A stretch of 64,000 bases of DNA from an uncultured Planctomycetaceae bacterium (GCA_963833985.1 CAWIAD010000002.1:1024001-1088000), one strand, 5' to 3'. Positions 35,043 through 40,685 are shown, numbered from the stretch's first letter. Made by a program: numbers and translations. Notes: generated from the sequence alone by a model not told the origin.

Positions 35043-35648
35043 TCAGGGCCGCTTCATCTCGAACAGGTCCGTGCTGCGGCAGTAGTAGTCGCCGCCCAGG
35101 CGCGCGATGGTGCGCAGCTTGCGCGGGTCAACGTGGCCGGAGGGGTCCAGTACGGAGTCGTCGATATGGATGAGCAGCACCTCGCCGATCACCAGGTTCG
35201 CGGAAATCGGTCCATCGCCGATGGGGAGGATCTGCCGGACCCGGCATTCCATGTGGACCGGAGAAGCCGCCACGCGGGGCGGCCGAACCCGGCTCGAGGG
35301 TTCCAGGGCCAGGTTCGCGAACACGGCCTCGCTCTCGCCTCGGGGCAACTCCCTGGCGGTGAGGTTCATGGGCTCGGCCAGATCTTCCACGGCGGCGCTC
35401 AGGACGAATTCGGGCACGTCGTCAAGGTTCAGCAACGTGTCCTTCTTGGAGCCGTCGCGTCGCAGGCCCGGCGAGAAGACCACGACGGGAGGGTTGGCCC
35501 CGAAGACATTGAAGAAGCTGAACGGCGCCAGGTTCACGCGGCCCTCCCGGTCGACCGTCGTGACCCAGGCGATGGGCCGGGGTGTGACGACTTCCACGAG
35601 CGTCCGGTAGACCTTCACGACGTCGGTGGCGGCGACATCAATGATCAT
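35043..35648 (-). CDS. Flavin reductase-like protein (DIM6/NTAB family)
   Basis: VTPRPIAWVTT, NLAPFSFFN, KDTLLN, IARLGGDYY. Confidence 0.88.
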   Translation of the reverse strand: MIIDVAATDVVKVYRTLVEVVTPRPIAWVTTVDREGRVNLAPFSFFNVFGANPPVVVFSPGLRRDGSKKDTLLNLDDVPEFVLSAAVEDLAEPMNLTARELPRGESEAVFANLALEPSSRVRPPRVAASPVHMECRVRQILPIGDGPISANLVIGEVLLIHIDDSVLDPSGHVDPRKLRTIARLGGDYYCRSTDLFEMKRP

Positions 35649-36816
35649 TCAAGAGATCCAGCTCAAGGGGTACGTCGGATCGTCCAGCTCCATGGCCAGG
35701 CTTGAAAGCCGTAGCGGGCGATGGGTGTCCACCATCACGGCGAGTTCATCGGTCCGGGTGGCCGCGCGGCTGGCGGCGATGGTGCCGGGATGCGGGCCGT
35801 GGGGAATGCCGCGGGGGTGCAGCGTGAGCGACGACTCCTCCACGCCACGACGGCTGCCGAACCGGCCTCGAACGTAGTACAGCACCTCGTCGGCCTGCAC
35901 GTTGGAATGCGCGTAGGGCACCTTGATCGCCTCCGGGTGTGTGTCCAGCATGCGGGGTGCGAAGGTACACACAACGAACCCGGGCGCCTCGAAGGTCTGC
36001 TGCACCGGTGGAGGCTGATGCACGGTCCCGGTGATGGGTTCGAAATCGTCGGCGTTGAAGGTGTAGGGATAGAGCATTCCATCCCAGCCCACGACGTCGA
36101 AGGGATGGCTCGCCAGCGTGTAGCGCGTGAGCCGCTTGCCGTCGCGCACCAGCACCGAGGTTTCCTCTTCACGGTCGATGACTGCGATCTCTCCTGGACC
36201 ATGCAGGTCGCGCTCGGCATAGGGCGAACCCAGCTTCAACTGCCCGTCCGGGTTGAGGTAGCGCGGAGGGATCGTCACGTTGCCCGCTGCCTCGATGACG
36301 AGCATGTCGGGAGGCGAAGCCGGCTCGAATTCCAGCCGGTAGGTCGTGCAGCGTGGGATGACGATGTAATCGAAGTCTCGAAAGGGCAACGGTCCGAACA
36401 TCGTCTGTAGCGTCCCCTTGCCGCTGTGCATGAAGAGAATCTCATCGGCGTCGGCGTTGCGGAAGAGTTCTTGCTGTGGGCGTTCGGGCCGGCAGCGGGC
36501 CAGGCTGACATCGTCGTTGGCCAGCATGACGACGCGGCCGGTGACCGGGTCACCCGCGCGGCAGCGTCCTGGTCTTGAGGTGATGATGGCGGAGCGCCGG
36601 CTGATCGACCAGGTCGAGCGCGAGCGTGCCGGCGGGCTCGACACGGACCACGCGGGTGGGAGGCCGCAGGTGGTACACCAGGCTGTAGGCCCGGGAGAAG
36701 CCGGCAACCGTCACGACTTCCTCGTAATAGATCCCCTCGTTCAGGAAGCCCGGCTCATGCGGGTGGGCGATGTGCCGTTTCCGCGGGACCGAGCCAAGCC
36801 GTAGGTAGGGCGGCAT
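35649..36816 (-). CDS. hmgA: Homogentisate 1,2-dioxygenase; frameshift near 36555
   Basis: GSVPRKRH, RNADADE, HPFDVVGWDG, TGTVHQPP, PYAHSNV, LHPRGIPHGPHPG. Confidence 0.9.
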
Positions 36817-36851
36817 GGGGCATTCTCCGGTTGCGTTGCGTTGCGGTCCGT

Positions 36852-37563
36852 TCAGGGATGAGCGACGACCTGGTTGCGAAGCGTCCCGAGCCGCTCGATG
36901 GAGAGCTCGACGATGTCGCCCGGCCTGAGCCAGCCGCCGGCCGCCTGTGGCGTGAGCTCGAGGATGCAGCCCGTACCCACCGTGCCCGAGCCGAGCACGT
37001 CGCCGGGCTGTAGCGTGGCGTCGCGGCTGGCATGCGCCAGGAGCTGGGGCCAGGTCCAGTACATCGCGCCCGAATTGCCGCGCGAGAGGACTCGCCCGTT
37101 CACCGCCGCGGTCATCTCCAGATGCAGCCGGCCCGCGCGATAGCAGTCCGACAGCTCGTCCAGAGGCACGATCTCGGGGCCGAGCGAGGTGGCGAAGTCC
37201 TTGCCCTTGCTGGGCCCCAGTCCGACAGCCATCTCCGTGCGCTGAAGGTCGCGGGCGCTCCAGTCGTTCATGATGGTGAAACCCGCGACGCACTCGAGCG
37301 CGCGATCGTCGGCAGGCAGGTCGCGCGTGGCCTTGCCGATGACGCAGGCCAGTTCCAGCTCGAAGTCCAGCTCCTGGCTCGCGCGGAGCCCAGACCTCAG
37401 CCTGATGGCCGATGACGCCCCCGGGGTTGGAAAAATAGAAGACCGGAACACGGTACCACTCTGGCACCATGTCCAGACCACGCTGGCGGCGGCAGGTGGC
37501 GACGTGCTGCTCGAAAGCGTAGAAGTCGCGGATGCTGGCAACCTGGGTGACTGGTCGTCGCAT
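36852..37563 (-). CDS. Fumarylacetoacetate hydrolase family protein; frameshift near 37385
   Basis: RDFYAFEQHV, PVFYFSN, LDFELELACVIG, NDWSARD, KGKDFATSLGP, GSGTVGTGC. Confidence 0.88.
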
Positions 37564-37570
37564 GCGTGCC

Positions 37571-38566: not shown

Positions 38567-38625
38567 GCCGATACCCCCTCATGTGAAACCGCCGACACCG
38601 ACCTGACCCCGTTGAGGATACGTCG

Positions 38626-39749
38626 TCACAGTGTTCCACGCCGGGCCTGCTCGTGCTCGATGGCCTCGAAGAGAGCCTTGAAATTCCCCTTGCCGAAGCT
38701 CCGGGCCCCCCGACGCTGGATGATCTCAAAGAAGAGCGTCGGCCGGTCCTCCACCGGCTTGGTGAAAATCTGCAGCAGGTAGCCTTCGTCATCCCGATCC
38801 ACCAGGATCCCCAGCTCAGCCAGCTCGCGCAGGTCTTCGCGGATGCTGCCAACGCGCTCGGGGAGCATCTCGTAATAGGCCGGCGGCACCTTGAGGAACG
38901 ACACGTCGTTGGCGGCCATGGCACGCACGCTGGCAATGATATCGCCAGTGGCCAGCGCGATGTGCTGCACGCCGGGTCCGCCATAGTATTCCAGAAACTC
39001 ATCGATCTGGGACCGCCTGCGCCCTGAGCAGGCTCGTTGATGGGGAACTTGATCCGCCCGCGGCCATCGGCCACCACCTTGGACATGAGAGCGGAATAAT
39101 CGGTGCTGATGTCCTTATCGTCGAAGCTGGCCAGGAGCGAGAAGCCCATGATTTTACTGTAATAGTCCACCCAGTCGCCCATCTTGCCTTCCTCGACGTT
39201 GGCGACGATGTGATCGATGGCGCGCAGGCCGACAGGGTGAAAAGTGCGCGGGCTGTAGCGGTCGGGGTCGAGCGGCTTGAAGCCCGGGGCGAAGACTCCC
39301 TGGTAGCGCGACCGGTTCAGTAGCGTGTGGGTGGTATCTCCATAGGCCTGGATCTCCGCAACGTGGATGGTTCCGTGCTCGTCCTCGAGGACGCGCGGGA
39401 GCGAGGCGGGTCGTGCTCCCCGCGACAGGGCCGCCTCGAACGCCGCCGGCACGTCCTCCACCTCCAGTGCGATCGACTGCACACCGTCCCCATGGCGGAT
39501 CAGCCGGCCCGCTTCCGGGTGATCGGAGGTGAGGGGCGATGCGAGCACGAAGATGATCTGTCCCTGGCGGAGCACGTAGCACGCCTCGTGCCTCATGCCG
39601 GTTTCCAGTCCGCCATACGCGACCACGTCAAAGCCGAAGGCGTTGCGGTAGAAATACGCCGACTGTCGCGCGTTGCCGACGAACATACGCACGTGGTCGA
39701 TGCGCTTCAACGCCATGACGTCTTCCGGCATGCGAACCTCTTCTGGCAT
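38626..39749 (-). CDS. hppD: 4-hydroxyphenylpyruvate dioxygenase; frameshift near 39025
   Basis: [62 protein letters not shown]. Confidence 0.93.
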
Positions 39750-39773
39750 CGGAGCCGATGAAACAAGGGAAAC

Positions 39774-40685
39774 TCAGGTGGTCACAGCGTCCAGGCGATC
39801 TTCCTCGAGGCCGTCCCAGAAGACAGCGATGGCGTCGAGCACCTGACGGGCTCCCTGGAAGAAGCGGGCTTCGTCGAAACCCGGCTCGAAGAACACGCCC
39901 TCGAGCTCGTCCATGGTATGCCCGGCGTGCTGGGCCTCCACGCGGTTGTGCCAGGTGAAGAAGGCGACCTTGAGCGCCGGCAAGCGAGTGGCCTTGATGT
40001 GCAGCAGGCCGTCTTCCAGCTCCTGCCAGAAACCCGCGGCCGCCCAGTTCTCGACGGCAAAGCTGGCTCCTTCGGCAATCTGGCAGTCCTCGTTCCCATA
40101 GAGGCGTTGCAGCTCGTTGCAAAAGCGGAGCGTGTAGGGCCGGCCGTGCTTTCGCTTTCCCAGTTCGTCAAAGCCCAGGCCGAGCGCCTCGCCGACGGCA
40201 AGCAGCCACTCGAAATGCGCTGCCCGAAACCGGAAGACCCCGCCGTCGACGGTCCCTTCCGTGCTGACCAGGTCGGGGTCGCCCTCGCGGTCCCGGATGG
40301 CCTCATCCTCGCTCCGCGCCGGGGCGTTCCTGCCGTCGTGACGGCGGTAGATCACGCCCAGCTCGTTCATGAGGATCTCCTTGGCCGCCCGTGCCTGGGC
40401 CAGGGCCGGGGCGTTGACGACCCGCAGCAGGGCCGCGACCAAGAACTGGTTGGAGAAGACCGAGAACTGGCGCACGAAATGCCTTAGCTCGGCGTCGGAC
40501 GCCTGGCCGGCCTGGAACCAGTGCGTGTAGCGATTGCCGGTGATGATGCGATGCCCGAGCAGATCGTGATCGACGCGATCAAGGAAATCGCGAAAGGCAT
40601 CGACCTGCGCGGTGGTGAGTTCGCCGCGGTGCAATCTCTCCTCGATCCGGGGAGAGATCAGGGCATGTTGTGAAACCGTAGCCAT
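39774..40685 (-). CDS. Heme-oxygenase-like diiron protein (CADD/PqqC/TenA fold)
   Basis: All-helical pattern with a six-ligand E/H set: MNELG, AAHFEW, AVENW, WHNRVEAQH. Confidence 0.65.
   Translation of the reverse strand: MATVSQHALISPRIEERLHRGELTTAQVDAFRDFLDRVDHDLLGHRIITGNRYTHWFQAGQASDAELRHFVRQFSVFSNQFLVAALLRVVNAPALAQARAAKEILMNELGVIYRRHDGRNAPARSEDEAIRDREGDPDLVSTEGTVDGGVFRFRAAHFEWLLAVGEALGLGFDELGKRKHGRPYTLRFCNELQRLYGNEDCQIAEGASFAVENWAAAGFWQELEDGLLHIKATRLPALKVAFFTWHNRVEAQHAGHTMDELEGVFFEPGFDEARFFQGARQVLDAIAVFWDGLEEDRLDAVTT

Follow-up and report, generated by a model that had tools for sequence, protein, structure and literature searches.

A run of six genes at positions 35043..40685, on the minus strand, was investigated in a 64,000-nucleotide stretch of DNA (the window) from an uncultured Planctomycetaceae bacterium (GCA_963833985.1, CAWIAD010000002.1:1024001-1088000). 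The genes share one orientation and are ordered HDO, hppD, a gene of unassigned function, fah, hmgA and a flavin-reductase-like gene, where HDO stands for heme-oxygenase-like diiron enzyme; from HDO onward, the intergenic gaps are 24, 59, 7, 35 and 0 bp. The first gene (39774..40685) is intact and encodes a putative HDO-fold dimetal oxygenase of 303 amino acids, as assigned by profile match, ligand set and structure model. It is followed by hppD (38626..39749), which encodes 4-hydroxyphenylpyruvate dioxygenase (HppD), matches TIGR01263 on both halves and contains one frameshift at ~39021-39028, and by a gene for a 331-amino-acid protein (37571..38566) without a Pfam or NCBIfam match. Downstream of these are fah (36852..37563; PF01557), encoding a short-type fumarylacetoacetate hydrolase with one frameshift at ~37380-37393, and hmgA (35649..36816), encoding a short-type homogentisate 1,2-dioxygenase that matches PF20510, and TIGR01015 below the cut-off, with one frameshift at ~36556. 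The flavin-reductase-like gene (35043..35648; PF01613) abuts hmgA. These gene calls and profile matches confirmed the gene order, close packing and four named assignments of an initial annotation made from the sequence alone.

The genome, at 96.3% completeness, spans 10.16 Mb on 2 contigs, and its nearest named homologs are in Isosphaeraceae. Compared with four intact relatives, hppD is 1 base short and fah and hmgA are each 2 bases short, and two of the three frameshifts lie in CG repeats. Since several related genomes contain similar gene splits at other positions, the three frameshifts are likely long-read consensus errors, pseudogenisation being the alternative. The 331-amino-acid protein is an insert outside the conserved unit, because among the loci collected its homologs occur in just three others (L041/L019 and L044), two of them from one genome. 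Its Atlas neighbors were unnamed planctomycete and CARDB-like clusters, matched weakly and with recognition below threshold.

The HDO contains the ligands E108 (MNELG), H157 (AAHF), E212 (VENW) and H246-x3-E250-x2-H253, with 48 residues separating E108 from H157, in agreement with the E...H...E...H-x3-E-x2-H motif and ~40-residue insert described initially. The six ligands are kept in 165-166 of 166 aligned sequences, E103, N107, E159, H256 and E260 are also invariant in the family, and ~90 near-invariant positions, many of them aromatic or polar, extend well beyond the ligands. In the AlphaFold2 model (predicted local distance difference test score [pLDDT] 89.9, predicted template modeling score [pTM] 0.87), the ligand-bearing helices are 95-108, 157-167, 201-233 and 241-265, and the insert between the first two ligands carries a beta-hairpin. 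Sequence and model together place the E-H-E-H-(D/E)-H ligand motif on core helices, and ligand spacing in the sequence and helix placement would be compatible with one dimetal site. The seven-helix heme-oxygenase-like fold was supported by both Foldseek and VIA-align, which ranked HDOs top.

The match to PF14518 was weak (E 5e-4, 20.4 bits against a cut-off of 28.9 bits), and 18 of 38 family members matched this profile, also weakly. A profile search starting from the HDO matched a CADD-like protein, BesC and 4-aminobenzoate synthase, and 4259 of the 8000 proteins scored belonged to the family at E <= 0.001. These results support the first gene as a member of a genuine, uncharacterized HDO family with a predicted two-iron site. 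Among the homologs, P0127 and P0194, possibly eukaryotic, are fused at the N terminus to a cytochrome b5 domain that follows a hydrophobic leader; these fusions suggest that electrons come from outside the HDO, as in other HDOs. A divergent homolog, P0146, has some ligands altered and is fused behind a methyltransferase domain.

The window protein is only 11-18% identical to all of the PF14518 HDOs BesC, FlcD, HrmI, UndA, PolF, AetD and SznF, and it differs from them in the ~40-residue insert with the beta-hairpin. Its context is catabolic, whereas the known HDOs are biosynthetic according to the available part of a 2026 review (PMC13108848), which lists C-C cleavage, N-oxygenation, desaturation, rearrangement, azetidine and alkyne formation and self-sacrifice, none of them catabolic. 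All metal ligands are invariant in the HDO family, in contrast to TenA and PqqC, which are metal-free members of the fold. The open-access papers searched did not connect any HDO to hppD or to homogentisate genes.

We examined the neighborhood of HDO homologs in a GTDB set (the best 80 of 524 matches), a metagenome set (obtained with a gammaproteobacterial homolog as the query; the best 80 of 547 matches, many on short contigs) and a long-flank set (80 HDO loci flanked on both sides by 3.5 kb or more, still partly redundant after removal of 8 duplicates). In the long-flank set, hppD was present in 76 of 80 loci and hmgA in 73 of 80; 3 loci contained hppD without hmgA, none contained hmgA without hppD, and 4 contained neither. 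The 80 GTDB loci contained hppD (74), hmgA (70), fah (45), an acyl-CoA ligase gene (37), an Lrp regulator gene (24), a flavin-reductase-like gene (12) and maiA (2). The counts in the metagenome set were 42 for fah, 41 for maiA, 32 for hmgA, 26 for hppD, 10 for an amino-acid dehydrogenase gene and 0 for the flavin-reductase-like gene; among metagenome loci of at least 9 kb, hppD was found in 22 of 29. In Isosphaerales, hppD directly follows HDO in 28 of 29 loci. The order is HDO-hppD-fah-hmgA in planctomycetes, hppD-hmgA-HDO-ligase in cyanobacteria, and hppD-hmgA-fah-maiA-HDO or convergent in proteobacterial-type loci, where dehydrogenase, hppD, hmgA, maiA, fah and acyl-CoA ligase genes are often all nearby and phhA was in none of the HDO loci searched for it. 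The link covers two deep hppD subfamilies, and two alphaproteobacterial-labeled loci (L106/L117) place a planctomycete/cyanobacterial-type HDO beside a proteobacterial-type hppD. These results support a tie of the HDO family to hppD across several bacterial phyla; of the refuting outcomes listed with the initial annotation, rare proximity of homologs to hppD did not occur. Five loci (L145, L151, L153, L205 and L206) have HDO adjoining amino-acid dehydrogenase and keto-acid dehydrogenase genes, with no hppD in the stretch examined, and shorter, more distant homologs in G944 and G063 are located away from tyrosine-catabolic clusters.

The absence of phhA, aminotransferase and maiA genes from the window's cluster, noted initially, was confirmed, but the lack of the latter two does not point to the HDO, given the maiA and dehydrogenase counts of the metagenome set. 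The window's own genome gave no match to maiA with the single query used. The HppD residues H174, S217, N232, Q242, H257, Q321 and E336, which are Fe ligands or active-site residues, were present in 118 of 118 related sequences, a set outside which the split hppD of the window falls. In its Fe ligands and its Ser/Asn/Gln/Phe active-site residues, this related set is canonical for HppD and unlike hydroxymandelate synthase.

Several side observations were made in these loci. A 7.2-kb viral_contigs record (L001) contains a fah-HDO-hppD block, which might represent either a piece of cellular DNA or an auxiliary metabolic cluster. Genes for bacterial indoleamine 2,3-dioxygenase (PF01231) follow the cyanobacterial cluster in L053, L055, L061, L064 and L090, and a split PF01231 homolog is located away from the cluster in the window's genome (G000:C2 ~3936700-3937800). 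Near some cyanobacterial clusters (L089:12235-13314; L052, L072, L093 and L102) are a second hppD and genes for UbiA-family prenyltransferases, which may point to a connection with the synthesis of homogentisate-derived quinones.

The flavin-reductase-like gene was rejected as a partner of the HDO. Of 13 Isosphaerales clusters without HDO, 10 retain this gene, and it is next to hmgA in 15 of 19 loci taken from genomes that lack HDO, versus 12 of 80 and 0 of 80 HDO loci in the GTDB and metagenome sets, and the cyanobacterial and proteobacterial-type HDO loci are without it. The gene thus travels with hmgA, contrary to the suggestion in the initial annotation that its product may reduce the HDO. 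Among 105 hmgA loci of at least 9 kb, 24 contained only maiA, 22 only the flavin-reductase-like gene and 34 only a cyanobacterial gene for a 299-amino-acid protein without a Pfam or NCBIfam match (e.g., L096:2354-3250); 25 contained none of these and no locus contained two together (L211:5847-6515 is a further locus cited for this exclusion pattern). The flavin-reductase-like and 299-amino-acid proteins are therefore candidate glutathione-independent stand-ins for MaiA, in a pattern that is confounded with phylum.

Among 121 Isosphaerales genomes, HDO was detected in 37 (one weak fragment excluded) and hppD in 50; HDO was present in 37 of the 50 genomes with hppD and in 0 of the 71 without it. 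The HDO-less hppD genes are scattered over the hppD tree, which suggests repeated HDO loss. Since HDO occurs in only 37 of the 50, the core pathway runs independently of it, supporting an accessory role in which HDO widens entry, and such a distribution is as expected of a feeder step.

We tentatively propose that the HDO is an optional, pterin-independent para-hydroxylase that would convert phenylalanine to tyrosine, or phenylpyruvate to 4-hydroxyphenylpyruvate, and thereby feed HppD, HmgA and Fah. This reaction was chosen because clusters that are complete in other respects lack a step for phenylalanine entry. The substrate carboxylate would bind at Fe1 of the predicted diferrous centre, and O2 would then generate a peroxo-diferric intermediate, as in other HDOs (available part of PMC13108848); this intermediate would hydroxylate the ring, and the irons would be re-reduced by a general cellular reductant rather than by the flavin-reductase-like neighbor. 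Phenylpyruvate as the substrate would explain why HDO is kept, non-redundantly, beside PhhA and why it lies next to amino-acid dehydrogenase genes, as in L145, L151, L153, L205 and L206. The fold, the six invariant ligands, the hppD linkage and the accessory status are supported by the model, the sequences and the counts, and the iron chemistry and ring hydroxylation are what we infer beyond them. The proposed role resembles by inference that of PhhA, phenylalanine entry to the homogentisate pathway, but PhhA has another fold and a pterin cofactor, and the window HDO has no match to PF00351 (Biopterin_H).

The distribution of phhA bears on phenylalanine or phenylpyruvate hydroxylation in both directions. 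In favor of it, the window's own genome (96.3% complete) contains no PF00351 match and no PaaA-family gene. PF00351 was matched in 0 of 121 Isosphaerales genomes, and thus in none of the 37 with HDO, in 0 of 50 further HDO genomes (those behind 50 of the 80 GTDB loci), and in neither of the 2 HDO genomes from a group rich in hmgA, against 4 of 8 HDO-less hmgA-containing genomes (8 of 26 tested) of that group; none of the HDO loci searched contained phhA. Outside the Moritella-like genomes, phhA was thus in 0 of 89 HDO genomes, all in phhA-poor lineages. Against the proposal, these lineages mostly lack phhA regardless of HDO, so that the test has low power and its outcome says little, and 13 Isosphaerales genomes with hppD have neither gene. 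In a phhA-rich order, 9 of 301 genomes contained HDO, each protein being 91-100% identical to one named from Moritella viscosa. This subclade, from one genus, is 42-44% identical to the window protein and shares every invariant residue. Of these nine genomes, seven also contain phhA; in the three of them that were examined, the gene is intact and adjoins phhB. The two genomes without it (G1139 and G1091) are both single-contig genomes. The rate among HDO carriers is close to the background of the order (44 of 51 HDO-less genomes with hppD). Ratios of nonsynonymous to synonymous substitution rates in these seven genomes were 0.039 for HDO and 0.038 for phhA, indicating equal purifying selection, and such co-retention argues against simple redundancy. 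The anti-correlation with phhA anticipated in the initial annotation thus holds in phhA-poor lineages, as in Isosphaerales, and fails in the sole phhA-rich lineage tested. Since one lineage keeps both genes, HDO does not strictly replace the classic phenylalanine hydroxylase. In addition, none of the HDOs listed in the available part of the 2026 review is described as hydroxylating a free arene. The idea of an undescribed entry step, such as a pterin-independent phenylalanine hydroxylase, therefore kept the HDO family, the hppD tie and the accessory status, and lost the flavin reductase partner, and its exclusion of phhA was weakened. In a separate observation, long-form PF00351 genes with open frames of 624 and 437 amino acids, matched in two separated pieces, were found in L263-L266 (G1272 and G1290).

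Other peripheral substrates would suit the same distribution. The HDO may feed another tyrosine-related compound unrelated to phenylalanine (4-hydroxyphenylacetate, ring-substituted or D-tyrosine, or tyramine-derived acids), since accessory distribution and full retention beside PhhA suit any peripheral feeder, and the available part of PMC9338888 describes several routes that meet at homogentisate with poorly assigned genes. We consider this unlikely, because no upstream gene or transporter for another substrate recurred across the two sets of 80 loci, and arylacetate routes skip HppD, yet HDO stays with hppD in broken clusters. HppD may accept phenylpyruvate as a side substrate, an activity not found in the papers searched. 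The product, 2-hydroxyphenylacetate, might be hydroxylated by the HDO at C5 to homogentisate, as a PhhA-free phenylalanine route or as dead-end clearance beside PhhA. Such a 5-hydroxylase matches the hppD tie and the coexistence with PhhA, a phenol is easier to hydroxylate than a bare ring, and this C5 hydroxylation is reported for Pseudomonas fluorescens and Rhodococcus erythropolis (available part of PMC9338888). It appears rather unlikely, however, given its dependence on this presumed HppD activity, the lack of any active-site change between HDO-adjacent and HDO-less HppD (21 versus 10 sequences), and the lack of any long-flank locus with HDO and hmgA alone.

A protective or metal-handling role, in which the HDO, without producing any pathway intermediate, removes peroxide or quinone or supplies HppD and HmgA with iron, would fit the dispensability of the gene and the ready air oxidation of homogentisate (available part of PMC9338888); it is improbable, as the ~90 near-invariant positions suggest a shaped site for an organic substrate. 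Even less probable is oxidative deamination of tyrosine (or phenylalanine) to the keto acid in place of an aminotransferase. Known HDOs work on amino-acid backbones and amines (available parts of PMC13108848 and PMC11869266), and the cluster has no aminotransferase gene and HDO immediately before hppD, as in the 28 of 29 Isosphaerales loci. However, an amino-acid dehydrogenase gene is in 10 of 80 HDO loci and an aminotransferase gene in 8 of 80, the window's genome has 8 matches to an aminotransferase of the type found in HDO loci, and a reductant-using deaminase would waste energy. CADD tops the Foldseek ranking (E 7.8e-5, TM-score 0.80 by target) and shares the six-ligand pattern, but the notion of a CADD-like self-sacrificing p-aminobenzoate synthase is largely refuted. 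Identity is just 14-16%, no folate genes recurred in the two sets of 80 loci, the neighbors being tyrosine-catabolic, and the sacrificial Tyr and Lys of CADD/NePabS are not kept. The essential Tyr27, Tyr43-equivalent and Lys152 of CADD (roles from the available part of PMC11965152) align to Thr54, Phe70 and Leu223 in a profile alignment to 9pj4 whose register rests on weak similarity.

The homogentisate pathway is textbook, and the window HDO belongs to a new family, inside the known HDO superfamily, that is attached to it; thousands of HDO-family proteins stand beside this pathway, so far unnamed. Under every alternative except the protective one, HDO would still be an unassigned oxygenase step. 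Ring hydroxylation, if true, would be a reaction type beyond those in the available part of PMC13108848, carried out by a single-chain, pterin-free catalyst for hydroxylation of phenylalanine to tyrosine or of the keto acid, and would explain how phhA-less bacteria could use phenylalanine. With slightly more reserve than for the activity itself, we suggest that this may be the first HDO with a catabolic role, and a pterin-free diiron enzyme that evolved independently as a second hydroxylase of phenylalanine or phenylpyruvate and acts on an unactivated benzene ring, which would provide cyanobacteria, planctomycetes and others with a route from phenylalanine to homogentisate.

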